A DNA stretch of 64,000 bases from an uncultured bacterium (GCA_963848635.1 CAWKEA010000005.1:175341-239340), one strand, 5' to 3'; shown: positions 1,027 to 58,293, counted from the stretch's first letter. The notes: a model not told the origin generated them from the letters alone. Translations and numbers: made by a program.

Positions 1027-1113
1027 CGAGATTTGATCTTGATTTTTGAGATCCGATCTTGTTATTCTGAGATCCGATCTTGATTTGTTCGTACAAGATC
1101 CGATCTCGTTTTA
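1027..1113. repeat. Array of four ~22-bp units each containing AGATCCGATCT (two GATC sites) in the udg/comEC divergent promoter
   Basis: Direct reading: gagatttgatcttga / gagatccgatcttgt / gagatccgatcttga / caagatccgatctcgt. The same 20-mer (19/20 identical) occurs twice inside holB at 11229-11270. Confidence 0.75.
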
Positions 1114-1118
1114 AAAAA

Positions 1119-1165
1119 ACTTTAGAATTATTTTAACTTTTCTTAATGGGCTTTTTGTATACTGC
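1119..1165 (+). promoter_or_regulatory. Conserved promoter module, copy 1 (cTTTAGAATTATTTTAACTTTTCTTAATg..tttttgTATACT) 7 nt upstream of the comEC ATG
   Basis: Near-identical module at 4251-4294 (reverse), 18796-18837, 44334-44378 (reverse) and 58891-58949. Ends in a TATACT/TATAAT -10-like hexamer. Confidence 0.6.
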
Positions 1166-1171
1166 ACGGAT

Positions 1172-3463
1172 ATGCCGATCGACAAGATATTCTATTCTGC
1201 ATGCCTCGGCTTTTCGGCCGGCGTTTTGTGGCGCTCCTTGGCGCGTCTCGACCTTATAGACGTCATATGCATCGGCTCGATATATCTTCTGCTTGTCTTT
1301 CTTTTCTCGATCATTTTAAAGAAAGACTGGGACATCCTTATATCGGTTTTCACGATCGCCCTTGTCCTTGGAATAGCGAGATTCCAGATAGCAGATATAC
1401 AGCCGCCAGCTATCTTTGAAGACCAAGTGAATAAAACCGTTTCTTTTTCTGCCATGATCGTTGACGAACCGGCGAGAAATGCGAGCCAGACGAAATTGAT
1501 CCTCGAGACGAATGGCTCTCTCGAGTCGGCTACAAAAATCACTGGCGATACAAAAGACGTCCCCGACGCTCACACTGAAATAGGCCAAGCAAAAACTGCC
1601 GATATGCGCATTAAAACAAATACAAAGACTGAAAAAGATCCGCTCCGAGTCGGCATCGTCGTCTTTTCAAAAGGAAACGGCGGATTCCATTACGGCGACC
1701 TTGTCAAAGTGACTGGCAAATTAGAAAAGCCCGCTGATTTCATGACAGACCAGGACATGGAATTCGACTACGTGGACTATCTGCGCAAAGACGGGATCTT
1801 TTACACCATTCATAATCCTGATATCAAGATCCTTTCATCCGGTCACGGCAACCCTATCAAGCGCTGGCTCTTCTCGTGGCGGGAAAGATTCGATACAGCC
1901 ATTGATACGGCGATACCCTCGCCCGAATCAACAGTGATCGGTGGCATCATCATCGGCGAACGCTATGCCTTCAGCGAACAATTGCGCCAGATATTCATGG
2001 ATACGGGCACCATCCACATCGTCACTATCGGCGGCTATCATGTCACTCTCGTGGCTGAATGGATCATGAAGATATTCTCGTTCCTACCGAGATTCGCAGG
2101 CTGGGGAGCCGGCATCGTCAGCATATTCCTCTATGTCATCGTCACGGGCGGAGCAGAGACATCAATCCGCGCAGGGATCATGGCGGCTCTCGCCATTTTT
2201 GCCACTGCGACCGGACGCACATACGCTTCCGGCCGAGCGCTCGTCCTCGCCGCGATCGTCATGATATGCATAAATCCGTTCGTCCTCGTCTACGACATAT
2301 CGTTTGATCTGTCGTTCATGGCCACGATCGCCATCATATTCCTTTCGCCGCGTCTCGAGCCGTATCTCGAATGGATCCCATGGAAATGGCTGCGCGGAAT
2401 CGTCACTGTCACCGTTTCGATGTATGCTTTCGCGTTGCCCTTCGTGCTCTATCGCATCGGCAATCTCTCGCTCGTATCACTGCCCGCGAACATGGCTATC
2501 GTGCCCCTCATGCCCGCGACTATGATCGCCGGATTCATCACCGGTTTCGCGGGGCTGATATCGCCCATGCTTGCTGTCATTCCCGGCAAGATCGCTTACA
2601 CGCTCCTCTACTATCAGATCGGCGCCGTGGCTCTCCTTGCAAGATTGCCGTTCGCCGCAGTCGCCATCCAGAATTTTTCACTGCCGATCGTCATCGCCAT
2701 TTACGCGTGCTTCGGTTGTATCTTTTTAAAGGGAGACAGTAAGGCAAGAAAAGCCGCAGGCGCGGCTCTCGGGCCGCAAAGCCTGACGGCCAAGCGTCTT
2801 TCGAAGCTCAATGTTCTCATGCTTTCGATCCCCCTCATCATCACTTTTTCAGCCGCAGGTTTTCTGTATTACAGCCATTACCGGTCAGACCAAGCTTCCT
2901 TGAAAGCCATTCAAAAGCTTCTTTACGAAACAACGACTGCTGACCCTTCGGAAGTATTTTCTTCCACATCGACGGCTCATGTCTTTATGCCGAATCCAAG
3001 AACTGCTTCAAGCGATTGCAAAATAAATGGTGTTTACCCCGACCACACGTGCACACCCGGCGCCGTATTCACCGACGCGACAACAGAGGATGTCTGCGTC
3101 AAAGGCTATACAGCGACCGTCAGAAACGTGTCGGAAAAGACAAAGAAACAGGTATTCGAAGAATACGGCATAGCCTATCCGCAACCGGCTGGCGCGTACG
3201 AGGTCGACCATTTCATTCCCCTGGCTCTTGGCGGGGCGAACGATATCGCCAATCTTTTCCCAGAGGCGGCCGCACCGACGCCGGGATTTCACGAAAAAGA
3301 CGTCGTCGAAGTCTTCTTGCAAGAAGAAGTGTGCTCCGGCCACGCCGCGCTTGCCGCCGCTCAACGGCAAATCTCCACCGATTGGCTGGCAGTCTATGAG
3401 AATATCCCGTTCGAAGACATTCAAAAGATCAAGAATAAGTATGGCGGGAGCGCGGTTCAATAA
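1172..3463 (+). CDS. comEC: ComEC/Rec2 DNA-internalisation channel with a C-terminal HNH-like nuclease domain (no metallo-beta-lactamase domain)
   Basis: 763 aa. N-terminal OB/DUF4131-like region, then a polytopic competence domain. The C-terminal ~150 aa carry 'YEVDHFIPLALGGANDIANLFP' (HNH D-H...N...N signature) where the usual MBL domain would be. Confidence 0.8.
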   Translation: MPIDKIFYSACLGFSAGVLWRSLARLDLIDVICIGSIYLLLVFLFSIILKKDWDILISVFTIALVLGIARFQIADIQPPAIFEDQVNKTVSFSAMIVDEPARNASQTKLILETNGSLESATKITGDTKDVPDAHTEIGQAKTADMRIKTNTKTEKDPLRVGIVVFSKGNGGFHYGDLVKVTGKLEKPADFMTDQDMEFDYVDYLRKDGIFYTIHNPDIKILSSGHGNPIKRWLFSWRERFDTAIDTAIPSPESTVIGGIIIGERYAFSEQLRQIFMDTGTIHIVTIGGYHVTLVAEWIMKIFSFLPRFAGWGAGIVSIFLYVIVTGGAETSIRAGIMAALAIFATATGRTYASGRALVLAAIVMICINPFVLVYDISFDLSFMATIAIIFLSPRLEPYLEWIPWKWLRGIVTVTVSMYAFALPFVLYRIGNLSLVSLPANMAIVPLMPATMIAGFITGFAGLISPMLAVIPGKIAYTLLYYQIGAVALLARLPFAAVAIQNFSLPIVIAIYACFGCIFLKGDSKARKAAGAALGPQSLTAKRLSKLNVLMLSIPLIITFSAAGFLYYSHYRSDQASLKAIQKLLYETTTADPSEVFSSTSTAHVFMPNPRTASSDCKINGVYPDHTCTPGAVFTDATTEDVCVKGYTATVRNVSEKTKKQVFEEYGIAYPQPAGAYEVDHFIPLALGGANDIANLFPEAAAPTPGFHEKDVVEVFLQEEVCSGHAALAAAQRQISTDWLAVYENIPFEDIQKIKNKYGGSAVQ

Positions 3464-3480: not shown

Positions 3481-3503
3481 GTGTCAAGATGACATCTTGA
3501 CAC
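3481..3503. repeat. REP-like palindrome GTGTCAAGATGACATCTTGACAC (copy 1)
   Basis: Perfect 10-bp inverted arms in the comEC/LTD convergent gap. Same core as seven other loci. Confidence 0.8.
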
Positions 3504-4206: not shown

Positions 4207-4250
4207 GAAAGTTATACGGCTTTATCTCCATCGATATCATCTACACGCGC

Positions 4251-4294
4251 AGTATACGAAAAATTCATTAAGAAAAGTTAAAATAATTCTAAAG
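4251..4294 (-). promoter_or_regulatory. Conserved promoter module, copy 2 (reverse orientation), upstream of the LTD gene
   Basis: Reverse complement reads ctttagaattattttaacttttcttaatgaatttttcgTATACTgcgcg, near-identical to copy 1 including the TATACT. Confidence 0.6.
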
Positions 4295-4316
4295 AAACCC
4301 TAAAATGACACATTAC

Positions 4317-5767: not shown

Positions 5768-5769
5768 GG

Positions 5770-6778: not shown

Positions 6779-8194
6779 ATGGCAGAGACGACAAAATCTC
6801 CTTACTACAAGACATCCGACCTGCGCATACCGCCGCAGTCGCTCGAGGCGGAGCGCGCTCTCCTCGGCTCGGTGATGATGCGGCCCGAAGTCATCCACGA
6901 GATCATCGATGTCGTCTCAGACAGGACCTTCTATTCGGATCGTCATCGCCTGATCTGGCTCTCTATGCTCGAGCTCCACCAAAAAGCCACGCCGATCGAC
7001 CTGCTCTCGCTCTCCTCGAGGCTCAAGGAAAAAGAACTGATCGAAACGGTCGGCGGCATGACCTATCTGACCGAATTGGTCCAAAGCGTGCCGTCATCGG
7101 CCAACGCGAAATATTACGCGGAGATAATCCAGAAGAAACAGCTCATGCGCGACCTCATCAGCGCCTCCGAATACATCGGCAATCTCGGCTTCGATCAGGA
7201 TGGAGACCTCGAAGAGACATTGGATAAGGCGGAAAAGAGGATATTTGACGTGACCAATTTTGCCGGCAGTCAGCACAAGTTCATCGCTCTGAAAGACACC
7301 CTCGTCGAAGCATGGGAGCGCCTCGAAAAGCTCCACGAGACTCGCGGCGAATTGCGCGGCATACCGACCGGCTACAAGGAGCTCGACAACAAATTAGCCG
7401 GCTTCCAAAAGTCAGACCTTATCATCCTCGCCGCCCGGCCATCCATGGGAAAAACGTCGCTCGCGCTCGACATCGCCCGCAAGGCGGCCGTCCTCCACAA
7501 TGTATCCGTCGGCATATTCTCCCTGGAAATGAGCTCGCAACAGCTCGTCGACCGCATGCTCGCGGCAGAAGCATCAGTCGACGCCTGGAAATTGCGCACC
7601 GGCCATAACTTGTCCATCGAGCACGATTTCAAGGCGATTCGCGACGCCATGGACCGCCTCTCAAAAGCGCCGATCTATATCGACGACCAGGCGGCCAACA
7701 ATATTCTAAAGATGCGCGCCGTCGCTCGCCGGCTCAAGAGCGAGAAAGGCCTCGGCCTTATCGTCGTGGACTACTTGCAATTGATGGTGCCGACGAATGC
7801 GCGCCACAACGACAACATGGTTCAGCAGGTCACTGAGATTTCGCGCTCGCTCAAACAGCTGGCGCGCGAATTGGAAGTGCCCGTCCTTGCCCTATCACAG
7901 CTGTCTCGCGCCGTCGAACAGCGCGGCGAAGGCGGCCGTCCGAAACTATCCGACTTGCGCGATTCCGGTTCCATCGAGCAGGACGCCGACGTGGTCATGT
8001 TCATCCATCGCGAGGACAAATACAACAAAGACTCGGGCAAGCCGAATATCGCCAATATCATCATCGAAAAGCACCGCAACGGCCCGACAGGCACGGTCGA
8101 ATTGTACTTTGACGAGAAGAAAACTACATTCCTTTCCATCGAAAAGGCCGATTTTGGAGATTTTGACAAAGGCGGGAACGATCAGCCATTTTAA
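6779..8194 (+). CDS. dnaB: Replicative DNA helicase DnaB
   Basis: N-terminal 'ERALLGSVMM' followed by Walker A 'ARPSMGKTSLAL' and the RecA-like core. 471 aa. Confidence 0.9.
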   Translation: MAETTKSPYYKTSDLRIPPQSLEAERALLGSVMMRPEVIHEIIDVVSDRTFYSDRHRLIWLSMLELHQKATPIDLLSLSSRLKEKELIETVGGMTYLTELVQSVPSSANAKYYAEIIQKKQLMRDLISASEYIGNLGFDQDGDLEETLDKAEKRIFDVTNFAGSQHKFIALKDTLVEAWERLEKLHETRGELRGIPTGYKELDNKLAGFQKSDLIILAARPSMGKTSLALDIARKAAVLHNVSVGIFSLEMSSQQLVDRMLAAEASVDAWKLRTGHNLSIEHDFKAIRDAMDRLSKAPIYIDDQAANNILKMRAVARRLKSEKGLGLIVVDYLQLMVPTNARHNDNMVQQVTEISRSLKQLARELEVPVLALSQLSRAVEQRGEGGRPKLSDLRDSGSIEQDADVVMFIHREDKYNKDSGKPNIANIIIEKHRNGPTGTVELYFDEKKTTFLSIEKADFGDFDKGGNDQPF

Positions 8195-8247
8195 TAATGT
8201 AAAATTAAAAAATCAAAAGGTAAAATGACATATTAAAATTTAAAAAT

Positions 8248-8556
8248 ATGAAACTATACAAAAATTGGAGTCTTTGGTACTGGATAATCATTTTTGCTTA
8301 TTGGTTTTTTTATCAAATTCCACTATCCAACACTTTTACTCCTAGTACACTAGGAGTTCCAAATTCAGCAGATTTTGTACTCTACGCAATTTCTGATATT
8401 ATCCCCGCTTTCTATATTTGGTTTATCATAAAAATAATTCTCAGTATTTTAAAGAAGATAAAAACTCAACAAAATAAAGTCAATTATTCTATTCTTTTAG
8501 TTTGTGTTATTCTCTCTAGTGTTCTTATTGCATGGTATGTGTTTAAGTTATTTTAA
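8248..8556 (+). CDS. Hypothetical small membrane protein (cassette cargo)
   Basis: 102 aa, three predicted TM helices, very AT-rich codon usage. Confidence 0.45.
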   Translation: MKLYKNWSLWYWIIIFAYWFFYQIPLSNTFTPSTLGVPNSADFVLYAISDIIPAFYIWFIIKIILSILKKIKTQQNKVNYSILLVCVILSSVLIAWYVFKLF

Positions 8557-8577: not shown

Positions 8578-8952
8578 ATGGAAAATGACAGAGAAAAATT
8601 CAAAAATGAATTCAAGAAAAGGTTGTATGCTTGGGTGTTACGACTTGTAAAATTCATTGATTCATTAAAGAAAGATTCAACTTCGTTAGTTATTGGCAAA
8701 CAGTTATTACGAAGCGGAACAAGCATTCTTGCCAACTATATCGAAGCACATTCTGCAAGCTCAAAAAGAGATTTCGGTAACTTTTTCAATCATTCACTTA
8801 AATCTGCAAATGAATCAAAGGTCTGGCTTGCAATAATTCGTGATACTGACAAAGGTAACCAGAGAGAAGTATCGTGGCTCTTGAAAGAGTTGACTGAAAT
8901 ATCAAATATCTTTGCTTCAAGTCTATTAACACTTCGAGGTAAAAAGAAATGA
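8578..8952 (+). CDS. Four-helix-bundle protein (TIGR02436-like; 23S rRNA intervening-sequence protein family)
   Basis: 'LVIGKQLLRSGTSILANYIEAHSASSKRDFGNFFNHSLKSANESKVWL' matches the family signature. Confidence 0.7.
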   Translation: MENDREKFKNEFKKRLYAWVLRLVKFIDSLKKDSTSLVIGKQLLRSGTSILANYIEAHSASSKRDFGNFFNHSLKSANESKVWLAIIRDTDKGNQREVSWLLKELTEISNIFASSLLTLRGKKK

Positions 8953-9012
8953 ATATTTTGTCATTTTACATTGTAATTTTCCCTTTTGATTTTTAATTTT
9001 TACATTCTTATT

Positions 9013-9645
9013 ATGGATCCCGTCAACAAACTCATCGAGCTCTTCTCCGAATTCCCCGGCATCGGGCCGAGGCAGGCGCGGCGGTTCGCGTATTTCATTT
9101 TGACGCGCAACAACGGCTTTTTGGATGATTTTACAAGGAATATCGCGGCGGCAAAGAAATCGTTGCGGGTTTGCTCGATGTGCCAGCGCTTCTTTACTTC
9201 TGCGGAGGGTAGACCTCCGCAGGCCGCAAAGACATGCCCCATCTGCTCTGACGACACGCGCGACCAGGCCAGCCTCATGATCGTCGCACGCGACAGCGAT
9301 TTCGAAGCGATAGAAAAGAGCGGCGTCTATCATGGCCTTTATTTCATCCTCGGCGGCAGTGTGCCGATCCTCGAAAAAGAGCCGGAAAAGAGAGTGCGAT
9401 TGGCGGAGCTCAAAAAGCGAGTGCAAGGCGTTGGTCAAGATGTCATCTTGACAGAGATCATCCTCTCTATGAGCGTCACGCCTGACGGCGAGCATACGGC
9501 AGAAGTCGTCAAAGCTTTCCTTGAAAAGTCGATCGACGCTGAAAAAGTCAAAATAACTGTCTTGGGCAAAGGCCTTTCGACGGGAACGGAGCTGGAGTAT
9601 TCTGATACGGAGACGCTCAAGAATGCGCTCAAAAATCGGGCTTGA
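9013..9645 (+). CDS. recR: Recombination protein RecR
   Basis: 'FPGIGPRQARRFAYF' HhH, C4 zinc finger 'CSMCQ...CPICSD', Toprim 'MIVARDSDFEAIEKSGVYHGLYFILGG'. Confidence 0.9.
   Translation: MDPVNKLIELFSEFPGIGPRQARRFAYFILTRNNGFLDDFTRNIAAAKKSLRVCSMCQRFFTSAEGRPPQAAKTCPICSDDTRDQASLMIVARDSDFEAIEKSGVYHGLYFILGGSVPILEKEPEKRVRLAELKKRVQGVGQDVILTEIILSMSVTPDGEHTAEVVKAFLEKSIDAEKVKITVLGKGLSTGTELEYSDTETLKNALKNRA
9434..9452. repeat. REP-like palindrome GTCAAGATGTCATCTTGAC inside the recR CDS (encodes GQDVILT)
   Basis: Perfect palindrome in-frame within recR. Confidence 0.8.
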
Positions 9646-9780: not shown

Positions 9781-10161
9781 ATGGCACACCAAAATAAGAT
9801 AATAAAAGCACCGTCAAAATGGGACCTCCACCTGGCCTTCTTTGATTTGATTCCAGAAAGGTCTGCATCGCAGGAAACTCGGCGAACAGCCCGGTTCGAT
9901 GTCAGAGGACCTGATTTTGTTCCCTTTCCAACGGACATTTGGCCCGGTGAAACATACAGAGTCGATCTGGTGATCGATATGCTTGAATGGGAGGACGGGT
10001 CAGGAAATAGCTGGAATTTCAAAGGTCACGTAAAGATGATCAACTTCGTTCATGAAGAATGGAATGTAGTTCAAGGCCGATTTAGCACTACGAATCGTAC
10101 CGGATGGATTGAGTACCTGGAAAAGCCCCTCTCACACCAACTGGCTTCATCAATAAAATAA
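9781..10161 (+). CDS. Hypothetical protein
   Basis: 126 aa. RBS aaaggag 7 nt upstream of the ATG. Followed by an intrinsic terminator. Confidence 0.6.
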   Translation: MAHQNKIIKAPSKWDLHLAFFDLIPERSASQETRRTARFDVRGPDFVPFPTDIWPGETYRVDLVIDMLEWEDGSGNSWNFKGHVKMINFVHEEWNVVQGRFSTTNRTGWIEYLEKPLSHQLASSIK

Positions 10162-10251: not shown

Positions 10252-10515
10252 AAATCATAAAGCGACGCCTCCTGGAGATTTATTTTTTTAGGCCTACATT
10301 TTTTAATCGTAGGATCGTACGATTTTCCAAGACTCATAGCCGTACAATTAACGTTTTGCATGCCAAATCGTAGAATTGTACGGTTTACAAAAGCCTCATT
10401 TAAAAAGATATGCCATAGATACATACCATCAAAAAAGCTGCTTCTAAGCGACTTTTTTATTTGTGTTTTTCCTTTTATACTTTTTATATTTTCAGGCCTA
10501 TTATTTAAAATCCTA

Positions 10516-10875
10516 TTATTTGAAATCCTCTATCTTTATCGAAAAATATGGTTGGCGATGGCCGGCTTTCTTGAAATACTTGCTCTTTTGCTTGTACTTG
10601 ATGACCGTGACTTTTTTGGCACGGGCGATCCGAGCGATAGTGCCGGTGACGCGGGCCTTTTCGATATACGGAGTGCCGATAGTAGTGTCAGAGCCATTGT
10701 CGACGAGCAAAACCTTGTCAAAGACGACTTTGTCGCCCTCCTTATATTCGGCGGTTTTTGCGGCGTCTTTGCCGTCCCCTTTTCCTTTTGGAGCCGCGAG
10801 CTTTTCAATGCGAATGAGGTCGCCTTTTGCAACGGTGTATTGCTTGCCGCCTGTTTCGATGATGGCTATTTCCAT
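10516..10875 (-). CDS. rplU: 50S ribosomal protein L21
   Basis: 'MEIAIIETGGKQYTVAKGDLIRIEKL' is the canonical L21 N-terminus. No rpmA follows. Confidence 0.9.
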   Translation of the reverse strand: MEIAIIETGGKQYTVAKGDLIRIEKLAAPKGKGDGKDAAKTAEYKEGDKVVFDKVLLVDNGSDTTIGTPYIEKARVTGTIARIARAKKVTVIKYKQKSKYFKKAGHRQPYFSIKIEDFK

Positions 10876-10976
10876 AGGGAATTATTCTCGCATATTTGTA
10901 AAAAGAATGCAAATTTTAGCTTCCCTTGTCGGACTCAAAAAACCGAGCGACCAGTTGAAGGCTGGCACGACTGCAT

Positions 10977-11714
10977 TCAAACGCTGAGCGCCATATATTC
11001 CAAAAGCTGTTTTACGGATGCCGCGCGATCGCGGAGATATGATTCGGTTCGCGCGATGGCGGCAAGAGGAGCGGCGTTCTTTTCGATGCCGCTGTCATGC
11101 AAAAGCTTCGAGAGATCCGCGCAGAATTCGAGAGCGGCGCTTTTCGGCTTTTTGCCGTCAGAGATATCCGCGGATAGCTTGTCGGCAAAGGCGACGCGGC
11201 TAGCCAGCGGTGAAGCGAGAAAATCCCGTACGAGATCCGATCTCGTGGCCGATACAAGATCCGATCTTGTAGTCCGCACCATGTAAAGCCTCGAACGCAC
11301 CGTCGGCAGGAGCGATTCATCCGAAGGTATGACGATGAAAAAAAGCGCGTACCCGTTCGGCTCCTCGAGCATCTTTAAAAGAGCGTTTTGCGCTTCGTGC
11401 GTGATCGAACGGATCACGATGACAAAAAATCTCCGAGCGACATCGCCGCCCCGCGAAGAGAACGGCCGCGTGGCGTGCATATCCTTTAGCTCGCGGGCAT
11501 CGTCGATGGTCAGAATTTCATACGTACGGACGAAGACGTCGGGATTGCCTTGAATTGAGACGCCCTGCTTTTCCTTTAAAAAAGAAAGTATCTCTAGTTG
11601 CGCGTCTTCAGCGCCGACGATGCAGTAGGCATGATGAGAAAGATTTCCGAGCGATTGCGATAGTTCCATGCCAGCTATTGTATCAAATAGTCCCGGCAAA
11701 ATCTGTCTCTTCAA
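10977..11714 (-). CDS. holB: DNA polymerase III delta' subunit-like protein
   Basis: 'THEAQNALLKMLEEPNGYALFFIV' matches the delta'/clamp-loader box. Contains an in-frame tandem 'TRSDLVSATRSDLV' encoded by the AGATCCGATCT repeat. Confidence 0.7.
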   Translation of the reverse strand: MKRQILPGLFDTIAGMELSQSLGNLSHHAYCIVGAEDAQLEILSFLKEKQGVSIQGNPDVFVRTYEILTIDDARELKDMHATRPFSSRGGDVARRFFVIVIRSITHEAQNALLKMLEEPNGYALFFIVIPSDESLLPTVRSRLYMVRTTRSDLVSATRSDLVRDFLASPLASRVAFADKLSADISDGKKPKSAALEFCADLSKLLHDSGIEKNAAPLAAIARTESYLRDRAASVKQLLEYMALSV

Positions 11715-18738: not shown

Positions 18739-18795
18739 AAAGGATACTATAGCGCATCGCGCATGATGGGGCAATGAAAAAAGATTTTAATCTTT

Positions 18796-44333: not shown

Positions 44334-44378
44334 ATTATAGAAAAACGGTTATTAAGAAAAGTTAAAATAAAAATAAAG
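44334..44378 (-). promoter_or_regulatory. Conserved promoter module, copy 4 (reverse), with TATAAT
   Basis: Reverse complement reads ctttatttttattttaacttttcttaataaccgtttttcTATAAT. Confidence 0.5.
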
Positions 44379-44464
44379 ATTTCTTAATAATTCTATCGAC
44401 TCGTTTCTGTTGACAAGGTCGACCAGTTTGATATCATTATGACACGCTACAGTTATGTCCATCG

Positions 44465-46745: not shown

Positions 46746-47482
46746 TTTGGCACGAAGGATTGACGACTGAAGGACGCATATTTATTGGTCATTTTAAAAG
46801 TCGGCAAGAATATTGTCAACTTTTGTGACCAGCAAAAAAGACCTTCATGCCCGCGATCTTGATCTGCTATTCTTTAATGAAAAAACTGCTTCAGAACTTT
46901 CGTAATGAAGCGGCTGGAAGCGCGGTGCACGAAAGGCGCTTACGCTTGCCCAAGGATCTCCTTTTTGCCTGCCTTGGTCAGCCGGAATGTCGAAACTTGG
47001 CATTGTTCATCATCTTGAGTTCTCTCGCAATAAAGCAACCCCTGGTCTATCGCCCAAGCAGCGCCTGCAGCCAAGAATTGCTGACCCCTCATGTTGCTGT
47101 CCAAAACAACTTTAACTTGAATAATCCTCGGATATATCAATCATGGTATAATGTTCCGAATGGAAAGAACCGACGCCGAAATCATCAAGGCAACGATCGA
47201 CGGCGACACATCGGCGACGCATTGATACTGCTCTATGAGGCAAGATATGGGCCTAGATATTGCCAAAAATACGATTTTAGCATATAGTGCTCATGTAAAA
47301 GACAGACCGCACAGAGCGATCTGGTCGTCAGTTTTACAAAAAATAGCGCGATAAAACCGCAATTGATGTCCCGAGCGCCGTTCATAACCCTGTCAGACAC
47401 GCATATCTTGCGTCTCTCTGGGCTCGGAACTGGATACTCGGCACTTTATTATTAGTTTAAAAAGCGGAGCGCGCCGAATCAA

Positions 47483-49362: not shown

Positions 49363-50744
49363 TTAGGCCAAGGTGCTACCTTGACCATACGCCGCTGCCT
49401 CGCCTCCTGCAACGTAGCCCGTCGTCCAGCAGAGCTGTAGAGAATAGCCGCCGGATGGACGGTTGATATGCAAAAGGTCGCCCGTGACGAACAGGTTGTC
49501 CACGACTTTCGACGCACACGTGCGCATATCGATCTCATCGAGCGCGACGCCGCCGTCGGAAACGACGGCGCGATCATTGCCCATGAGGCCGGTGATCGTG
49601 ACAGGCAAAGCTTTGAGGAGCCGGACGAGCGTCTTGCGCTCATCACGGGTGATGCTGTGGACTTTTGTTGCAAGGTCGATCGTGCCGGATCGTCCTTTAT
49701 CATCTCCAATATGCGCATCAAAACTTTCGACTAATATCTCGACGCCTTTCGCCATGCCGGCAGGCAGGATATCGCCGAGCACGTTCTTGAGCATCTTATT
49801 CTTGTTCTGATCGAATACTGCGACGACCCTTTTCTCAAAGGTTCCGAGGTCTTCGGCAGGAAAAAGATCGATGCTCGCTGTCACCGCGCCGGACTTCAAA
49901 AGATCGGATACTTTTTTCGCGCTGTTGAGGATAAGAGGGCCCGAAAGGCCGAAATGGGTAAAAAGCAGGCGGCCTTTCTTTGAAAAGGATTTGACCCCGT
50001 CGACAAAAAAAGCTATCTTCATGTCTTCGACGGAAATACCGGCCATCTTTTTGATCCAAGCGTCGCTCACTGAGAGAGGCACGATCGAGGGAGTCGGGTC
50101 TACGACCGTATGCCCTAGTTTTCGAAGCCAGCCAAAGCCGTCGCCTGTCGAGCCAGTTTCCTTGTGCGATGCGCCGCCTGTGGCAAAAATGAACGATCTT
50201 CCATAATATTCCGTTGTGCCGCATGCGACGGAAATGATCCGGCTTTCCCGCTTTTCTTGCACGTCTGCCCTTCGCCTTCTTCCGCGTCTCGCTCATTTTG
50301 AGAGCTTAAAATATCATCGCAATTCACTCGTGTCACCGCCGAGCTTGTCTTGACTATCACTCCGCCGCCGCGCACATATCTTTCAAGGACGTCATAGACA
50401 TCTGTGGCCTTCTGGCTCTTTGGAAACGCTCGCTTGCGCTCTTCGATCACGAGGGGCAAGCCGCGCGACTCAAAGAACGAGAACGTCTCCGCGATGCCGA
50501 ATCTCGAAAATATCGAGAATAGAAATTTTCCAGCCGGGCCATAATGAGCAAGGAGCGCATGCACGTCATATTCTGCATTGGTGATGTTGCAACGGCCTCC
50601 GCCGGTTATCTTGAGCTTCTCGCCCATCTTTGAATTCTTTTCGAGGATAAGGACCCGAGCGCCGATCTCGGCCGCTCGCCCTGCGGCCATCAATCCCGAT
50701 GCGCCTCCTCCGACGACGATGACGTCATAGATGTCTTTGCTCAT
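49363..50744 (-). pseudogene. HI0933-family FAD-dependent flavoprotein interrupted by a frameshift
   Basis: N-terminal frame 'YDVIVVGGGASGLMAAGRAAE...GGGRCNITN'. C-terminal frame 'FIFATGGASHKETGSTGDGFGWL...'. Frames overlap at 50115-50262. Confidence 0.6.
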
Positions 50745-51458: not shown

Positions 51459-54377
51459 ATGTTCATTCCCACAAAGAAACTAAAGAGGGTCTTGATTCCA
51501 GCTATCATTTTTTTTGCAGGCATATTTTCATTTATAAATCACGCGCATGCCGCACTCATCAATGCAAGCGCGGTCTTGGGCCAAGGCGGCAGTTATACCA
51601 CCGACACCGCAAACTACCCTTCGGGTAGCGTCACCCCTTATGGATTAAGCCAAACATGGAGCGTTGCTCTCGATACAGTCAATAATCGCCTGTTCGTTTC
51701 AGACTCTGGCAACAACCGCATCCTCGTCTACCCTCTTGATAGCTCCAACAATCTGACGACAACGACCCCGAGCTACGTTCTCGGTTCTTGCAACTTTACG
51801 GCTGCTGGCGCCGGCGGCGTGTCATCGACTACTTTTAGCGCAGGCGATTGGGTTAATGTAGAGTATGATTATACCAATTCTCGTCTCTTTGTTTCAGATG
51901 GCAATCATAACCGAGTACTTGGTTTCAATGTCGCAACTTCGACCATCAGCAACTGCGAGCCCGCTTCGTTCGTCGTAGGCCAAGGAAGCTTCACTTCATC
52001 TACTGCCACAACGACGCAAAACGGCCTTAACGGTCCTGATGACATGTTTTATGATCCGATAAATGGACGTTTATTTGTGTCTGATAACCCTAACAATCGC
52101 GTGATGGCCTTTAGCGTTCCCGCAAACGCCACGAGCAGTATCAACGGCGAAAACGCTATCTTTGAACTCGGTCAATCGAGCTTTTCTGGGAAAGCTACCG
52201 GCCTGTCGCAGAGCGGCCTCAATGGACCAAACGGTCTGTCGTATGATTATGTGAATTCACGCCTATTCGTCTCTGACGGCAACAATAATCGCGTGATGGC
52301 CTTTAGCGTTCCCGCAAACGCCACGAGCAGTATCAACGGCGAAAACGCTATCTTTGAACTCGGTCAGCCGGATTTTAACACAGGCACTGCTGCTACGACG
52401 CAATCAGGATTGAATCTCTCCGATGACAGCGACTGGGATTCGACGGCGAACCGTCTTTTTGTCGCCGATGCCCTAAATGCAAGGATCGTTATTTTCAATG
52501 TTCCCAACAATGCCACGAGCAGTATCAACGGCGAAAATGCTGAACAGAATATAGGTCAATCGAATTGGACGAACAAGACTGCCGGCACCGCGCAAAATCA
52601 GTTTACCTATGTCGAATCTCCTCATGCATATGATCCTGTCAATAATAAATTCTGGACATATGAATGGACGAGGAACCGCGTTCTCGAATTCAGTATGATA
52701 AAGATCACGACTGCTTCGCTCCCTTCCGCTACCGTCGGCAGTCTGTATTCTCAGACCCTCATCTCGACTTCTTCCCAAGGGACGGTCACGTGGAACCTCG
52801 CGAGCACATCCTCAAGCCTTCCCGCCGGTCTTTCCTTGAACTCTTCCACGGGAGTGATTTCAGGGACACCCACTGTCATCGGCAGTTACCCGGTGACTAT
52901 CGAAGCGGATGATAATTACACGACGGGCCCTTTCTTCTATCGACAAAATTATACGATTCAAGTCAATGCTGCGTATCCAACCGTCATTCTCACTGCAGGC
53001 CTCGCCACGTCATCCATAACTCAGACATCAGTGATCTTGAACGCTACTACAACATCGACCGGAGGCGCTTCCACCACCATCGAAGGCTTCAATATCGGCA
53101 CGACGACGAGCTATGGCACGGTAGCATCGACATCCGGAACTTTTGGTATAGGTCCTTTTTCTCAATCAGTCAGCGGTTTAACGTGCGGTACGATTTATAA
53201 TTTCCAAGCGTTTGCAACAAACTCCGGCGGAACAGGTACTTCCTCCAATATGACATTCACTACCAATCCCTGCACCTACACCCTCAGCTACGCCGCCGGA
53301 ACGAACGGCACGATATCAGGATCCTCGACCCAAGTGGTGTCGAGCGGCTCAAGCGGCAGTCCTGTCACCGCCGTGGCCAACTCCGGCTATCATTTCGTCA
53401 GCTGGTCCGACGCTTCGACCACGAATCCCCGCACCGACGCGAACGTAGCCGGCAATGTGACGGTGACGGCGAGCTTCGCTACGACCACCTACACCCTCAG
53501 CTACGCCGCCGGAACGAACGGCACGATATCAGGATCCTCGACCCAAGTGGTGTCGAGCGGCTCAAGCGGCAGTCCTGTCACCGCCGTGGCCAACTCCGGC
53601 TATCATTTCGTCAGCTGGTCCGACGCTTCGACCACGAATCCCCGCACCGACGCGAACGTAGCCGGCAATGTGACGGTGACGGCGAGCTTCGCTACGACCA
53701 CCTACACCCTCAGCTACGCCGCCGGAACGAACGGCACGATATCAGGATCCTCGACCCAAGTGGTGTCGAGCGGCTCAAGCGGCAGTCCTGTCACCGCCGT
53801 GGCCAACTCCGGCTATCATTTCGTCAGCTGGTCCGACGCTTCGACCACGAATCCCCGCACCGACGCGAACGTAGCCGGCAATGTGACGGTGACGGCGAGC
53901 TTCGCTGTGACAGATGTCACGGCACAGCAACAACAAACAACCGCTCCGAGCGTCTCATCCTCTGGCGGTTCGATCTCTGCGTCGGCTTTAGCTTCGATCC
54001 TCGCTCCAAGCCCCGCAACGACCGCCTATCTTGATTCTCTTGAAAAGCAAACTTCCAATTGTCCTCCCGGATTCATGTGCGCGCCGCTTGCAACGGCTAC
54101 GAGCACCTATCCGTCACCTATGGTTCTCCCGCTTGCCTTCACTCGGGACCTGACCATCGGTTCGATCGGCTCTGACGTAAAAGCACTCCAAATATACCTG
54201 AATCGTCACGGATCTATCCTCGCTCAGACAGGCCCCGGCTCTCCCGGGGATGAAACCGCATCCTTCGGCGTCCTCACCAGATCCGCTCTTGCCAGACTCC
54301 AGAGAGCAGATGACATATCGCCGTCCATCGGATATTTTGGCACGATCACGAGAAATTATATTCTGAAGCATCCATAA
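51459..54377 (+). CDS. Large secreted surface protein: NHL-like repeats, Ig-like domain, three identical 71-aa bacterial repeat units, C-terminal peptidoglycan-binding domain
   Basis: Signal/TM 'VLIPAIIFFAGIFSFINHAHA'. 'NNRILVY/NHNRVLGF/NNRVMAF' NHL-type blades. 'YTLSYAAGTNGTISGSS...GYHFVSWSD' x3. 'VKALQIYLNRHGSILAQTG' PG_binding_1. Confidence 0.8.
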   Translation: MFIPTKKLKRVLIPAIIFFAGIFSFINHAHAALINASAVLGQGGSYTTDTANYPSGSVTPYGLSQTWSVALDTVNNRLFVSDSGNNRILVYPLDSSNNLTTTTPSYVLGSCNFTAAGAGGVSSTTFSAGDWVNVEYDYTNSRLFVSDGNHNRVLGFNVATSTISNCEPASFVVGQGSFTSSTATTTQNGLNGPDDMFYDPINGRLFVSDNPNNRVMAFSVPANATSSINGENAIFELGQSSFSGKATGLSQSGLNGPNGLSYDYVNSRLFVSDGNNNRVMAFSVPANATSSINGENAIFELGQPDFNTGTAATTQSGLNLSDDSDWDSTANRLFVADALNARIVIFNVPNNATSSINGENAEQNIGQSNWTNKTAGTAQNQFTYVESPHAYDPVNNKFWTYEWTRNRVLEFSMIKITTASLPSATVGSLYSQTLISTSSQGTVTWNLASTSSSLPAGLSLNSSTGVISGTPTVIGSYPVTIEADDNYTTGPFFYRQNYTIQVNAAYPTVILTAGLATSSITQTSVILNATTTSTGGASTTIEGFNIGTTTSYGTVASTSGTFGIGPFSQSVSGLTCGTIYNFQAFATNSGGTGTSSNMTFTTNPCTYTLSYAAGTNGTISGSSTQVVSSGSSGSPVTAVANSGYHFVSWSDASTTNPRTDANVAGNVTVTASFATTTYTLSYAAGTNGTISGSSTQVVSSGSSGSPVTAVANSGYHFVSWSDASTTNPRTDANVAGNVTVTASFATTTYTLSYAAGTNGTISGSSTQVVSSGSSGSPVTAVANSGYHFVSWSDASTTNPRTDANVAGNVTVTASFAVTDVTAQQQQTTAPSVSSSGGSISASALASILAPSPATTAYLDSLEKQTSNCPPGFMCAPLATATSTYPSPMVLPLAFTRDLTIGSIGSDVKALQIYLNRHGSILAQTGPGSPGDETASFGVLTRSALARLQRADDISPSIGYFGTITRNYILKHP
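53273..53903 (+). repeat. Three tandem 213-bp units, identical at nucleotide level, within the surface-protein gene
   Basis: Unit starts at 53273, 53486 and 53699. The third is truncated. Confidence 0.85.
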
Positions 54378-54430
54378 AAGACATTGGGTCATTTGGCAAT
54401 TGATTCGGTATTTGGCGGTACTAATGATTA

Positions 54431-54604
54431 TGTGCGAGATGCGGGAATCGGTCACAGGTCTCGCCGTGCTCGGCTCGCCCGCGACCCCGCCTCGCTCGCC
54501 TTCGCTCGCTCCGGCTTTCGATTCTCCCATCATCGTCGCAATGATGCTTCGTTCGAACAGCCCCCGGCCGTTCTCACGAATCATTGTGCGAGATGCGGGA
54601 ATCG
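54431..54604. repeat. Duplicated tRNA-Gly 3' end (tgtgcgagatgcgggaatcg) enclosing a ~135-bp mini-element homologous to the tRNA-Leu-associated unit
   Basis: Copies at 54431-54450 and 54585-54604. The element shares 'gagaatcgaaagccggagc' and the terminal 'ggcgaga..ctgtgacc' with the 23680-23839 unit. Confidence 0.75.
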
Positions 54605-55058: not shown

Positions 55059-55606
55059 AGTTTATGATTGAAGATCGATAGTTTGAATTGGGATCTTGAT
55101 ATGCGCGAGCAGAAGATTTCAAATCTACAATTTAAATCGTCAATTTCTCGATCGCTTGCGCGGACCGGCCTTTATAGTATACTACACGGCACAACAATCA
55201 TGCTTTTCCACAAGACAACCCGCAAGGTGCTCAACTGGACCATCATGGCTATCGGCATACTCGTCATCTTGAGCATGCTGATGCTTTATTTTCCAGCGCT
55301 CTGGCAGTCATAATCAGATCAAACACGCGTATTTAACATGTTAGACATCTGCTGATGTCTAACAGAATAAGGCTACGAAATTCAATAAGATCGGAATTAC
55401 ACAGATTTCGTTGACTTTTTCCGAGCTTAGGTATAGCTTTTTATCAGATAACCAAACGAAAGGACTTTACAATGAAAAAGAACATCGACCTCAAACCGTG
55501 ATTCAAGGATCAAAAGGCTCGTAAGATACGAGCTTCCAAAGCTAAAAAAGCTTATGAGGCCGAAATAGCAGGCCTCTTAAAATTCTATAAGAAGGCGAAA
55601 GACAAG

Positions 55607-56266
55607 GTGACCAAATTGATTCGTTCAGGCCAAACCACCGGCAATCGATTGACGGACGAAGTCATATTGCTGAGGGGCCTCGATGGTGACGCGATCGCCC
55701 GAATCAATGCATTCAGTGCAGATTGGTCCCTCGGCCAGGAGGTCTTGATCAGTGTACCGCGACTAAAGTGCACCAGGCATGTATTCATACCCACACCGGG
55801 ACACGATAATGAGTACGTCACTTTGATCGGCTACATATATGGAATTCCGTCGGGCGAAGGCATCATGGTCAATGGGAAGGGCAAAGAGCATCCAGCGGGA
55901 TTTGAAATCATCCTGCCCTTCAAACGCTATGTCATGTGGGACTTCGAACATATGAATACGGTCACCCCCGCCGAAGGACCGTTGGTTGTTGATGGAAACA
56001 TATTTGTCAGTCCAAGCGCTGAAAGATTGCTTGATGCCATCATTTCGGACGGAACACCCATATCGCTCGAGAAAATCGAGAAAAGAATGTTGCATCGATC
56101 GGATATTTTGACACCGGAAATTAAAATAACGATCATCAGCAAGGATAAAGACAGGCTTCCTGCTGAACACCGCGGAGAGACGCAGACGCATACGGCTCTC
56201 GAACACGGGCGTCGGGAAATCCAGGAATCAACGCCAGGCGAAAAGATCGCCGGCGGAGGCATCTGA
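55607..56266 (+). CDS. Hypothetical protein
   Basis: 219 aa. No motif recognised. Confidence 0.5.
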   Translation: MTKLIRSGQTTGNRLTDEVILLRGLDGDAIARINAFSADWSLGQEVLISVPRLKCTRHVFIPTPGHDNEYVTLIGYIYGIPSGEGIMVNGKGKEHPAGFEIILPFKRYVMWDFEHMNTVTPAEGPLVVDGNIFVSPSAERLLDAIISDGTPISLEKIEKRMLHRSDILTPEIKITIISKDKDRLPAEHRGETQTHTALEHGRREIQESTPGEKIAGGGI

Positions 56267-56418
56267 AATTCAGAAATAAACTGCCTCGCAGCAAGCTGCG
56301 GAGTAGTTACTCGTTTGTTCCGTCGTCGCTCGGACGTTGTGTACGAGAATACTCGTCCACACGTTCCTCGCTAGCCGGAATAAAAGCTTCCTCAGAGAGT
56401 TCCGCAAGGGACTCTTTT

Positions 56419-58293
56419 TTATTCCCCCGCCCGCATCATCTTTACAAAAACCTCCTGCGGTATATTAACCGAACCGTGCTCTTTGAGGCGCTTGCGGCCC
56501 TCTTTTTGCTTTTCGCGGAGCTTCATCTTGCGGGTGATGTCGCCGCCGGAAAGCGTGCCTGCGGCGTCCTTTTTCTTGCCAGAAACCGTGCGCGACGAGA
56601 TGATGCGGCCGAGAGCCTTGGCTTGGACCTTGAACGTAAAGAGCTCTCGCGGCAAAATTTTATAAAGCTTTTCGACGACTTCCTCGGCCTCCTGCTCGGC
56701 ACGGCGGCGCGAGACGACACGAGTGAAAGCGACCACAGGCTCGTCGGCTACAAGGATATCCATTCGGACGACATCGGCCGGACGGCTGTCGGTTATGTCA
56801 TACGAGATCGAGGCATAGCCGGACGAAACGCTCTTTGCCTCATCGAAAAAATTACGCATGAGCTCGCGCAAAGGCATGCGCAGAGTGAGCATCGTCCTGT
56901 TGTCGCCAAAATTATCCGTGCCTGTTATCTCCCCTTCATGATCGTAGAGCAATTTCATTATTCCTCCGATATACGCCGGCGGCGTGATTATCTTCATGGT
57001 GACGATCGGTTCGACCACTGACTTGACCTCGTTCTCGTCCGGAAAAAGAGCAGGCGAATAGATCGTGACCATTTTTCCATCCTTTTTTTCGACAATGTAC
57101 GTGATCGACGGCGTAGTGACGACAAGGTTCAAGTTGAATTCGCGATGCAGGCGCTCGGTTATTATCTCCATATGCAACATGCCGAGAAAGCCGCAACGAT
57201 AGCCTTTGCCCAACGTGCCCGAAGCCTCTTCTTCATAGGTAAAGGAAGAATCAGACAAGCGCAAACGGCCAAGAGCCTGACGCAAGAGCGCGAGATCGTC
57301 CTGCGATTCTGGATAGACAGACGCCCAGACGACGGGCCGAGGGCTCTGATAGCCGGGCATAGGCGCCTGCGTATCCTTGAGCGACGCAACGGTGTCTCCG
57401 ACAGACGCGACGCCCGGCTCCTTTATCCCTGTGACGATATAGCCGATCTCGCCCGCTGAAAGCGATTCCATCGGGACATTGTCAGGAGAAAAGATGCCGA
57501 CCTCGAGCGCTTCGAACGCGCGCTTTGAATTCTTGAAGATGAGCTTGTCGTGACGGCGAACCGAGCCCTGCATGACGCGCACATAGACGATGACGCCGGT
57601 GTGATTGGAATATTGGAAGTCAAAGATGAGGGAGCGGAAGGCTGAATTATCTGAGCTTCGCGACGGAAGAGTCTCGCCCTGCGTCGGCGGCGGCACCCGC
57701 TTTATCACCTCTTCCAACAGATGCGCCACGCCTTCGCCTGTCTTGCCGGAGACTTTCAAGATGTCCTCAGGCTTGCAGTCAAGAAGCTGGCAGACTTCAT
57801 GGACGACTTCTTCGGTCATGGCAAGCGGCGAGTCGATCTTTGAAACCGTCGGGATGATGGTGAGACCTGCTTCTCGTGCCATCGCGAGCGTCGTCAAGGT
57901 CTGCGCTTGGACGCCCTGCGTCGCATCGACAAGAAGAATGGAACCTTCGACGGCCTTCAGCGCGCGCGAGACTTCATAGGAAAAATCGATGTGGCCGGGC
58001 GTGTCGATGAGGTTGAGGATGTATTCTTGATCATCTTTGCCTTCAATCACTGGTCCTTGATCTTCAGTTTTGAATTTTGAGTTTTGAGCTTTCAGTTTCC
58101 ATTTCATTCTGACCGGTTGCATCTTTATCGTGATCCCCCTCTCGCGCTCGAGCTCCATGCTGTCGAGGACTTGCTCCTGCATCTTGCGCTTTTCGATGGT
58201 GCCGGTTATCTCGAGCAGACGATCGGCAAGAGTGCTCTTGCCGTGGTCGATGTGAGCTATGATGCTGAAATTGCGTATATGAGATGAATCCAT
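56419..58293 (-). CDS. lepA: Elongation factor 4 (LepA) with short in-frame low-complexity insertion in the G domain
   Basis: 'IIAHIDHGKSTLADRLL', 'DTPGHIDF', C-terminal LepA-specific domain. Insertion 'KWKLKAQNSKFKTEDQGPVIEGKDDQ' before 'YILNLIDTPGH'. Confidence 0.9.
   Translation of the reverse strand: MDSSHIRNFSIIAHIDHGKSTLADRLLEITGTIEKRKMQEQVLDSMELERERGITIKMQPVRMKWKLKAQNSKFKTEDQGPVIEGKDDQEYILNLIDTPGHIDFSYEVSRALKAVEGSILLVDATQGVQAQTLTTLAMAREAGLTIIPTVSKIDSPLAMTEEVVHEVCQLLDCKPEDILKVSGKTGEGVAHLLEEVIKRVPPPTQGETLPSRSSDNSAFRSLIFDFQYSNHTGVIVYVRVMQGSVRRHDKLIFKNSKRAFEALEVGIFSPDNVPMESLSAGEIGYIVTGIKEPGVASVGDTVASLKDTQAPMPGYQSPRPVVWASVYPESQDDLALLRQALGRLRLSDSSFTYEEEASGTLGKGYRCGFLGMLHMEIITERLHREFNLNLVVTTPSITYIVEKKDGKMVTIYSPALFPDENEVKSVVEPIVTMKIITPPAYIGGIMKLLYDHEGEITGTDNFGDNRTMLTLRMPLRELMRNFFDEAKSVSSGYASISYDITDSRPADVVRMDILVADEPVVAFTRVVSRRRAEQEAEEVVEKLYKILPRELFTFKVQAKALGRIISSRTVSGKKKDAAGTLSGGDITRKMKLREKQKEGRKRLKEHGSVNIPQEVFVKMMRAGE

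Follow-up and report, generated by a model that had tools for sequence, protein, structure and literature searches.

Hairpin-forming repeat families, copies in frame within housekeeping genes, and a RAYT-like transposase gene in a patescibacterial genome

A 64,000-nucleotide stretch of the genome of an uncultured bacterium of the Patescibacteria (GCA_963848635.1, CAWKEA010000005.1:175341-239340; the whole stretch is hereafter called the window) carries several dispersed families of hairpin-forming repeats. Copies lie between genes and, in frame, within housekeeping genes such as holB, recR, truB and uvrC; at some such sites related genomes have either no element or a different one. The arms of one family, a 21-bp palindrome that we call family A, covary, and its copies bracket a gene resembling that of RAYT, the tyrosine transposase associated with repetitive extragenic palindromes (REPs). 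It is probable that the repeats are elements of the REP/RAYT kind together with longer ones resembling the Rickettsia palindromic elements (RPEs), and that selection has filtered them for a length divisible by three, for open frames and for tolerant loops.

Results

Family A consists of 21-bp palindromes with covarying arms

The closest relatives of the UvrB protein encoded in the window are Patescibacteria (Candidate Phyla Radiation, CPR) annotated as Paceibacterota, Parcubacteria or Taylorbacteria; related sequences are labelled by a number after L (DNA loci) or P (proteins). Gene order near uvrB is not conserved between the window and the relatives. Genes of DNA metabolism are abundant in the window (UDG, comEC, an Mrr-like nuclease gene, dnaB, recR, holB, uvrB, dprA, topA, parB, uvrC and uvrA).

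The family A unit has a 9-3-9 layout, in which the arm GTAC[A/G]AGAT, with ATCT[C/T]GTAC as the opposite arm, or the arm TGTCAAGAT stands round a 3-nt centre. AGATCCGATCT is the core of the subtype with a CCG centre; the units of that subtype, found in an array near comEC and in holB, have their arms in common with TGTCAAGATGACATCTTGACA and differ from it only in the centre. Several subtypes coexist within one genome, and a further one, GGTCAAGGTAGCACCTTGGCC, present once in the window, is dominant in the relative L008. The window holds 18 copies of family A in 64 kb (about one per 3.6 kb) against about 2 expected, with AGATNNNATCT found 17 times (1.9 expected) and CAAGATNNNATCTTG 7 times (0.01 expected). 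The same 17-21-mers recur, letter for letter, at many unlinked sites within and between genes, and in different genomes. A search with TCAAGATNNNATCTTGA (14 specified bases) covered 596 Gb of contigs and has random single matches among the matches listed.

With the left arm as the sole criterion for choosing candidate sites in the window and the relatives, arm pairing was bimodal: the background peaked at 1-3 complementary positions of 9, and 37 sites paired at 8-9 of 9. In an alignment of 30 distinct 21-mers, 93% of the cells were paired and seven of the nine pairs changed on both sides; none of 500 shuffles gave as high a covariation score, a count that must be discounted somewhat because the 21-mers were in part chosen for palindromy. 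Nine of the 18 copies in the window lie within open reading frames (ORFs) of at least 100 amino acids, compared with a coding fraction of 80% (p = 0.004), and this depletion is as expected under purifying selection, or loss, of most genic insertions. The 21-nt units are open in most frames, and the CCG-centre subtype is open in all six, reading TRSDLV on both strands.

The array and the holB copies had been noticed in an earlier, sequence-only reading of this DNA. Its four-copy array of AGATCCGATCT has three exact copies, at 1049, 1070 and 1096, and a fourth that is degenerate (AGATTTGATCT, 1029), and the two occurrences that it placed within holB are exact, at 11233 and 11257. With at most one mismatch and on both strands, AGATCCGATCT has 11 matches in the window against 2.4 expected, a number that none of 100 shuffles reached. 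The 20-mer reported as common to the array (1090-1109) and holB (11227-11246) is identical at 19 of 20 positions, and the peptide TRSDLVSATRSDLV was correctly derived from the holB repeat region. The holB gene is on the minus strand (10977-11714; Pfam DNA_pol3_delta2); an overlapping plus-strand ORF (10360-11286) has no Pfam hit and was rejected as spurious. The array sits between the divergent UDG gene (355-948, minus strand) and comEC (1172-3463, plus strand), immediately 5' of a promoter-like 50-mer described below.

A RAYT-like gene is bracketed by family A copies

Five palindromes stand round the gene for the RAYT-like protein (Table 1): two upstream, a third some 600 nt away on that side, and two at the 3' end. 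Residues H74, H76 and Y134 of the protein are invariant in 32 homologues. The homologues of the protein are patescibacterial; most of them have a precomputed PF01797 hit, and several are named RayT by the source. The window protein itself scored 19.8 bits against Pfam Y1_Tnp (E = 9e-4) and 24.6 bits against NCBIfam REP_Tyr_transpos (NF047646; E = 2e-5). Its AlphaFold model (predicted local distance difference test score, 91) matched best, among PDB entries, 4er8 (E = 6e-6), which is the Escherichia coli RAYT bound to a REP hairpin, and next the TnpA proteins of IS608 and ISDra2. The RAYT homologues of L008 and L009 are bracketed in the same layout, each by its own variant of the palindrome (GTACAAGGTAGCACCTTGTAC and GTACAAGGGCTACCCTTGTAC, respectively). 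If it works like E. coli TnpA-REP and the transposases of IS200/IS605, the enzyme would bind and cut single-stranded hairpins and in this way spread or maintain family A.

In-frame copies occupy loops and linkers that vary among relatives

The two holB palindromes fill a hypervariable linker after the RSRL motif, and a single compensated pair distinguishes one from the other (ACGAGATC..GATCTCGT versus ACAAGATC..GATCTTGT). Among relatives of 60-67% identity, the HolB segment from RSRLFMVR to DFLxS ranges from about 8 to 40 amino acids, and TR(S/A)(D/T)L(V/G) units, singly or in pairs, are often found in it. The linker DNA of L130 is of the GGGCTACCC subtype, the local genome's own, and is read as TRATLV. 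An identical HolB was found in a Logan assembly. The recR palindrome lies in a loop that is 4 amino acids longer than in the RecR structure 3vdp.

Further sites came from the relatives. After the YRIEY motif of UvrB, L003 has 18 additional nucleotides (YGGPTSG) and L006 has 6 (YRGPTSV), both on the GGTCCGACC subtype, whereas the window, L001 and L004 have no extra nucleotides there. The UvrB proteins P0005, P0007 and P0013 (alignment columns 236-300) have a longer insert after YRIEY, VIPASRSEAKAKAGIL...DPRLRGDDK, which has the look of a further translated family of palindromic repeats. GatB of L009 contains two in-frame triple arrays (3 x 28 = 84 nt), either of them read as VQGLPLY, TRATLV and YKGYPCT, and the smc and ABC ATPase genes of relatives also carry palindromes. 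Together with the long elements described below, the genes with elements in relatives are dnaE, secA, tgt, gatB, smc, the ABC ATPase gene and a VIT1-family gene.

Repeats inside DNA-repair and replication genes had been pointed out. Such genes do carry repeats, but not exclusively, since truB, rpe and lepA carry them as well; in the window 5 of 12 DNA-metabolism genes and 4 of 45 other genes have an element (p = 0.015, a small and post-hoc count). Inserts are common to close relatives only and were not found in unrelated lineages, and other relatives that are equally close either lack them or have different elements at the same sites.

PE-1 and PE-2 are long hairpins in the UvrC linker and in unrelated genes

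The linker of UvrC between RGRNLEK and FGPYPAGG is of similar length in four relatives, in which its sequence is unrelated or only partly related. In the window it is filled by PE-1, a 114-bp element of family B. The left arm of PE-1 is a 24/27-mer that matches topA at 26 of 27 nt; the 24-mer is exact, and either gene reads it in the sense direction. The right arm of PE-1 is a 23-mer that matches lepA. The topA/uvrC match had been recognized before, with SEAIGRDR encoded in both genes; this is correct, and the sites are at 21038-21061 (plus strand) and 27447-27470 (minus strand), not at 21036 and 27437. An all-against-all repeat search yielded the second match, an exact 23-mer common to uvrC (27358-27380) and lepA (57653-57675), sense in both and read as ETLPSRSS. 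No exact 23-27-mers arose by chance in 100 shuffles.

The two arms match as imperfect terminal inverted repeats at 17 of 22 positions, and the linker forms a single long hairpin (z = -3.8 for the window, -5.1 for L001 and -4.4 for L003; none of 200 shuffles equalled these), while the 24-mer and the 23-mer alone gave no significant hairpin (z = -2.2 to +0.2). A local BLAST search detected a full copy of PE-1, 87% identical, in a VIT1-family gene of L131, where it is in frame, encodes the same peptide and folds with z = -4.4; its arms have changed in a compensatory manner, from CGG/CCG to CCC/GGG. A metagenome scan for the PE-1 core retrieved an identical uvrC from an independent JGI assembly (L134), an in-frame copy in another ORF (L133) and an intergenic copy whose arms are different but complementary (L132). 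Another ENA assembly contains a UvrC that differs by one amino acid. The second long element, PE-2, occupies the UvrC linkers of L001, L003 and L006, in the opposite orientation in L001, and relatives also carry it in frame within dnaE, secA and tgt.

The TopA loop insert is missing from all 50%-identity representatives aligned, and only its last 24-27 nt match PE-1. At the junction of the LepA G domain and domain II, where the window has the right-arm copy, L131 has a much larger and different insert that folds weakly (z = -1.9). We infer that the topA and lepA copies are remnants of fuller copies of PE-1. Neither the window nor the loci fetched contained a parent insertion sequence (IS) with PE-1 ends. 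A second TopA insert of about 20 amino acids, lysine-rich (KEKKTKKPRKTKRAKEASAPAPA; 21890-21990), lies between the C-terminal repeats and is likewise missing from the aligned representatives.

The UvrB and LepA inserts

An insertion of about 100 amino acids, built from an internal tandem of about 120 bp, had been described in uvrB. Relative to the close orthologue P0006 it measures about 97 amino acids; the 37-mer marking the tandem is exact twice, at 17221 and at 17344 rather than 17342, and the period is 123 bp. The repeats (17195-17290 and 17318-17413) are 78% identical and are arranged round a palindromic unit, KDDKNLADFSKSS; the insert also has a 15-nt x3 repeat (17398-17444). The insert is missing in P0006 and P0009, which are 87-89% identical over the aligned part (59% of the query), and it carries a KxDKNLxxFSKSS motif in P0001-5 and P0015, with other sequences at this place in further relatives. 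P0001-5 have the 123-bp duplication in common. The core of the insert is palindromic (AAAAGTTGACAAGAATCTTGCCAACTTTT and AAATTAACAAGAATCTTGTTAATTT in relatives). We rejected the possibility that the 123-bp repeat forms a long hairpin (z = +0.5 and -1.4), only a 29-37-nt core being palindromic. The insert lies in a clade-specific hypervariable linker, and the palindromic unit at its core has been duplicated in tandem.

An intergenic relative of the uvrB unit, previously placed at 46795-46830, is indeed present, at 46791-46825, and its minus strand reads TTGACA-17-TAAAAT, 11 of 12 positions of the sigma-70 consensus. The uvrB unit and the 21-mer family have only ACAAGA/TCTTGT in common. Rfam searches over the window detected tRNAs only, with no match in the 46.2-46.8 kb gap.

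The insertion noted in the LepA G domain is also real, with 18 extra residues (LKAQNSKFKTEDQGPVIE) relative to EF4 of Thermus thermophilus. It showed no hairpin fold and no other copy, and is without a link to the palindrome families; the corresponding segment of L131 is similar in length but differs in sequence. The insert looks like ordinary slippage in a variable loop. Frame changes, of which one falls within the variable segment of the G domain, divide lepA of L131 (149-2131) into three overlapping ORFs; this could be an assembly error or a real frameshift.

The four observations of the sequence-only reading are thus confirmed, each far beyond chance and with coordinates off by 2-10 nt in places, but they are not one phenomenon. 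Its proposal of mobile, MITE-like repeats (miniature inverted-repeat transposable elements) that are kept only when in frame is partly supported: it holds for the array and holB and for topA and uvrC, is plausible for uvrB and does not extend to the LepA G-domain insert. The units are palindromic hairpin elements, which that reading did not recognize, and the target-site duplications that it put forward as a test were not found at the uvrC, VIT1, topA or lepA boundaries or at the uvrB REP site.

Table 1. Palindromes, long elements, protein inserts and the RAYT-like gene of the window (positions counted from its first nucleotide)
Feature	Position	Strand	Context and remarks
Array of four REP-like palindromes	1024-1111		Centres 1034, 1054, 1075, 1101; CCG-centre subtype, first degenerate
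Palindrome TGTCAAGATGACATCTTGACA	3482-3502		Between convergent comEC and LTD-domain genes
Palindrome in recR	9433-9453		In frame; peptide GQDVILT
Two palindromes in holB	11228-11272	-	In frame; ACGAGATCcGATCTCGT, ACAAGATCcGATCTTGT, read as TRSDLVSATRSDLV
Weak degenerate palindrome	14768-14788		RhuM-like gene; same pattern, membership doubtful
UvrB linker insert, ~97 aa	17161-17442	-	Between EVRPI and YKGQIFDF, before C-terminal helicase domain
TopA loop insert, ~23 aa	20993-21064	+	Lineage-specific; last 24-27 nt (21038-21064) match PE-1 left arm
PE-1, 114-bp long-hairpin element	27358-27471	-	Variable UvrC linker (SEAIGRDRRSLRASTARVGENFQQEIVRAPETLPSRSS)
Intergenic palindrome GTACGAGATGTCATCTTGACG	36473-36493		
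33-nt perfect palindrome, REP core GTACGAGATGACATCTCGTAC	37573-37605		truB, in frame, VVCTRCHLVQT; z = -8.5
Palindrome in ribulose-phosphate 3-epimerase gene (rpe)	42964-42984		In frame; CQDDILT
Intergenic palindrome akin to uvrB unit	46791-46825	-	25/29 positions; 88-90% over 30-34 nt
Different REP subtype GGTCAAGGTAGCACCTTGGCC	49366-49386		Single copy; 3' end of HI0933-like gene
PE-1 right-arm copy, 23 nt	57653-57675	-	lepA, ETLPSRSS; 7-aa insert, G domain/domain II junction
LepA G-domain insert, 18 aa	58045-58098	-	Direct 7-nt repeats (TCAAAAC)
Palindrome	58375-58395		52 nt upstream of lepA start codon
Two palindromes	58850-58870, 58953-58973		Either side of promoter-like 50-mer, upstream of RAYT-like gene
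RAYT-like Y1/HUH transposase gene	58977-59573	+	198 aa; YHVYNRG, NHLH (HUH), YIHLNP (Tyr)
Two palindromes	59532-59575		3' end of RAYT-like gene; the last provides its stop codon

Other repeats in the window

A conserved A/T-rich 50-mer (CTTTAGAATTATTTTAACTTTTCTTAAT ... TGTATAAT/TATACT) occurs at 1109-1160, 4246-4306 (minus strand), 18784-18836, 44342-44390 (minus strand) and 58894-58946, in each case 5' of a gene (comEC, the LTD-domain gene, dprA, rpiB and the RAYT-like gene). Copies also occur in L003 (21835-21862), L008 (~9960-10010) and L009 (~9930-9975), and in relatives the 50-mer precedes the RAYT homologues. It resembles a strong promoter that these genes have in common, equipped with an UP element and an extended -10 region. 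Between dnaB and recR lies a 700-bp cassette bounded by inverted repeats of 64 nt (8186-8249 and 8953-9016; 80% complementary). The cassette contains a small ORF together with a 23S_rRNA_IVP (bAvd-like) gene, and could be either mobile or what is left of a retroelement accessory gene. The bAvd-like gene (8578-8952) is the sole one in the window related to diversity-generating retroelements; a retroelement target was rejected as the source of the shared segments, which are identical and only 23-27 nt long, and the window has no reverse transcriptase gene.

A 72-nt repeat is present in inverted orientation at 44036-44108 and 56314-56385 (91-96% identical), the first copy overlapping rpiB at its annotated 5' end and the second just 3' of lepA; the repeat holds an ACGAG-TATT-CTCGT hairpin similar to the 21-mer arms. 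A 159-bp tandem repeat (23660-24088; 2.3-2.7 copies, 88-97% identical) starts in the 3' end of tRNA-Leu (23596-23678), and parts of it recur inverted at 54430-54526, beside tRNA-Gly. Downstream of bipA, a 55-nt unit present twice (36140-36285) contains the 20-nt perfect palindrome ATATAACCAATTGGTTATAT, and the 22-nt palindrome AGTTGCGACTGAGTCGCAACTA is found at two distant intergenic sites (25833-25854 and 36578-36599); both palindromes look like operators. Two ordinary repeat-domain proteins are also encoded: a 972-amino-acid surface protein with Flg_new_2 repeats, whose gene has perfect 213-bp x3 tandem repeats (53273-53911), and a Laminin_G_3 protein with repeats of 714-720 bp (60022-61638).

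Discussion

How the elements may have come to lie in essential genes

This patescibacterial genome carries several dispersed families of hairpin-forming repeats, family A and family B (PE-1) among them, and we propose that the RAYT-like enzyme would spread or maintain the family A hairpins. Copies would land in intergenic and genic DNA alike. Within essential genes, selection would keep only those with a length divisible by three (21, 84 (3 x 28) or 114 nt) that are free of stops in the frame used, and the genic copies that survive would be those in loops or inter-domain linkers. Such linkers (HolB after RSRL, UvrC, UvrB both after YRIEY and ahead of domain 3, and the G domain/domain II junction of LepA) would become hot spots with different elements in each lineage, and single arms, as in topA and lepA, would remain after later in-frame deletion. 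The lack of target-site duplications fits elements of the Y1 type better than classical MITEs.

Several points weigh against this account, in addition to the partial selection of the 21-mers for palindromy. The copies beside the RAYT-like gene have a GAC centre, unlike the CCG centre in holB, and that the CCG-centre subtype uses the same enzyme is suggested by the identical arms only. The RAYT-like protein falls under the curated cut-offs (19.8 versus 23 bits in Pfam, 24.6 versus 80 bits in NCBIfam), and its position far below the NCBIfam RAYT equivalog cut-off sets it apart from known RAYTs. No transposition event was observed, and mobilization by the RAYT-like enzyme is something that we infer; to our knowledge, how REPs spread has not been established even in E. 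coli. The copies in truB (compared with the TruB structure 1ze2) and holB add no net length relative to distant solved homologues, that in recR adds just 4 amino acids, and the empty uvrB allele after YRIEY (TCCGGTTCGACC) already resembles the palindrome centre GGTCCGACC. This absence of added length and the pre-existing resemblance indicate that local conversion or template switching may contribute beside insertion.

One could envisage, going further, that the palindromes arise locally without any mobile element, being generated and perfected again and again by slippage in tolerant linkers and by replication template switching where inverted repeats are imperfect (quasi-palindrome correction), the motifs recurring as similar starting sequences are converted. 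The empty uvrB allele, which holds most of the GGTCCGACC centre, and the truB copy without added length are consistent with such an origin, as are the palindromes that lie beside similar native sequence (DVILT/EIILS in recR; TRSDLVSA/TRSDLVRD in HolB) and the individual copies that are perfect while their arms differ from those of other copies and yet compensate each other; the LepA G-domain insert and the 15-nt x3 repeat of uvrB are plain slippage products. Local conversion is nonetheless unlikely as the whole explanation, given that identical 17-21-mers recur at many unlinked sites and across genomes, that a Y1 transposase gene is bracketed by matching variants in three genomes and that the 114-bp element is 87% identical in unrelated genes of different genomes.

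A bolder reading, to which we give little credence, is that in these reduced CPR genomes RAYT-driven palindromes act as more than parasites that are tolerated and continually overwrite the same linkers (HolB, UvrB, UvrC, LepA and GatB) with whichever subtype is active, or that the 21-mers double as uptake or competence signals, the latter idea arising because the array precedes comEC. If the former were true, essential proteins would undergo concerted, hairpin-templated remodelling that gives them lineage-specific surface segments.

Palindromes could also be functional cis-acting elements kept in place as sites for dimeric regulators, as terminators or RNA hairpins, or as DNA-uptake signals. 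Uptake signals in Neisseria and Haemophilus are enriched in genome-maintenance genes, and the post-hoc excess in DNA-metabolism genes given above (p = 0.015) would agree with a similar role here, as would the array directly 5' of the comEC promoter region, with dprA and a pilin-like gene nearby. One copy lies between convergent genes (3482-3502), others stand beside the promoter-like 50-mer (58850-58973), and the uvrB unit resembles a near-consensus promoter. Against a cis-acting function as the explanation, which we regard as improbable, the dominant variants differ between related genomes and track the RAYT gene and not any conserved specificity of uptake or of a regulator, several subtypes are present in one genome, many genic copies are in genes unrelated to DNA, and no regulator or uptake receptor is linked to the palindromes. 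Cis-acting roles and spread by a transposase do not exclude each other.

The view that the segments are ancestral, fast-evolving linkers with short identities due to chance or convergent low complexity draws on the nearly equal length of the UvrC linker in four relatives and on the presence of the UvrB insert and of HolB TRSDLV in several relatives, which makes both older than the window genome; this view is largely refuted, and very improbable, in light of the copies in non-orthologous contexts, the whole 114-bp element being found in unrelated genes and once between genes, the exact 23-27-mers that no shuffle produced, and the lack of inserts in close relatives (UvrB of P0006 and P0009, all TopA representatives). 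Finally, GATCGGAAGAG in the 24-mer resembles the start of an Illumina adapter, with an 11-nt match to AGATCGGAAGAG and 8-nt matches in other units; an assembly or adapter artefact is scarcely credible, because independent assemblies carry the same genes (identical UvrC in the JGI assembly L134, near-identical UvrC in the other ENA assembly, identical HolB in the Logan assembly), and moreover the match stops short of the adapter proper, the copies are in frame with intact flanks, and related elements occur in relatives from other samples.

Relation to known repeat systems

The REP/RAYT-like and RPE-like elements favoured here share much with the REP/RAYT systems (REPtrons, REPINs): short dispersed palindromes with several subtypes per genome, in clusters or arrays, and a Y1/HUH gene bracketed by cognate palindromes, with variants that covary between genomes. 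A tyrosine-transposase gene bracketed by cognate repeats is the defining REP/RAYT arrangement (PMC2817692, Nunvar 2010; PMC3116915, Bertels & Rainey 2011; PMC3733652). Intragenic REPs of the GTAG and CGTC types have been reported, many of them in genes of global repair and replication (uvrA/B/C/D, recBCD, polA, dnaE/dnaE2) and in truB (Di Nocera 2013, PMC3733652), and the intragenic copies described here, in genes of the uvrB, uvrC, dnaE and truB types, fall in the same target classes. A difference that counts against assigning family A to the classical REPs is that it ends in GTAC...GTAC or TGTC...GACA instead of the GTAG (or CGTC) tag; the string GTAC is absent from the text of Di Nocera 2013 (PMC3733652). 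Further differences from known REPs are the patescibacterial host, the perfect 9-3-9 palindromes of exactly 21 nt, the location of half of the window copies within genes and, compared with the elements of Di Nocera, the re-use of the same linkers by different elements.

PE-1 and PE-2 recall by their architecture the RPEs (Ogata et al. 2000, as a passage of PMC3733652 recalls them), which are hairpin repeats of about 100-150 bp, in frame in housekeeping genes as well as intergenic and tolerated in loops and linkers. The lineage is a different one, however; the UvrC linker holds different elements, or opposite orientations, in related genomes, and single PE-1 arms stand alone in two further genes. 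PE-1 also resembles bacterial MITEs (Correia/NEMIS, Nezha, ERIC; PMC10969869) in being small, non-coding and dispersed, with imperfect terminal inverted repeats, but it has no target-site duplication and no partner IS was seen, and the whole element is one hairpin, not a pair of ends round unrelated DNA. With DNA uptake sequences and uptake signal sequences (DUS/USS), family A shares a short over-represented motif in coding regions, an apparent enrichment in repair and replication genes and competence genes nearby; unlike them it is palindromic, has several subtypes, differs between close relatives and is tied to a transposase gene.

The phenomenon is known in other bacteria, and what we describe is the same architecture in a phylum for which we found no report. 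A literature search returned no REP/RAYT system or in-frame palindromes in Patescibacteria/CPR, which, given its incomplete coverage, is weak evidence of absence.

Implications

The repeats provide a concrete source for many lineage-specific inserts in CPR housekeeping proteins, which might otherwise be read as functional novelty or annotation noise. The peptides TRSDLV, TRATLV, VQGLPLY, GPTS, SEAIGRDR...ETLPSRSS and GEPSGRELGLGNRG can flag repeat-derived segments in CPR alignments and structure predictions. The hot spots with presence or absence of an element (HolB after RSRL, UvrB after YRIEY and the UvrC linker) make both targeting and functional effect testable. The recurrence of excision-repair genes, replication genes and truB as sites of such repeats repeats an unexplained observation of Di Nocera 2013 (PMC3733652), and the findings extend the REP/RAYT and RPE phenomena to a phylum of very small genomes, in which selfish DNA is expected to be scarce.

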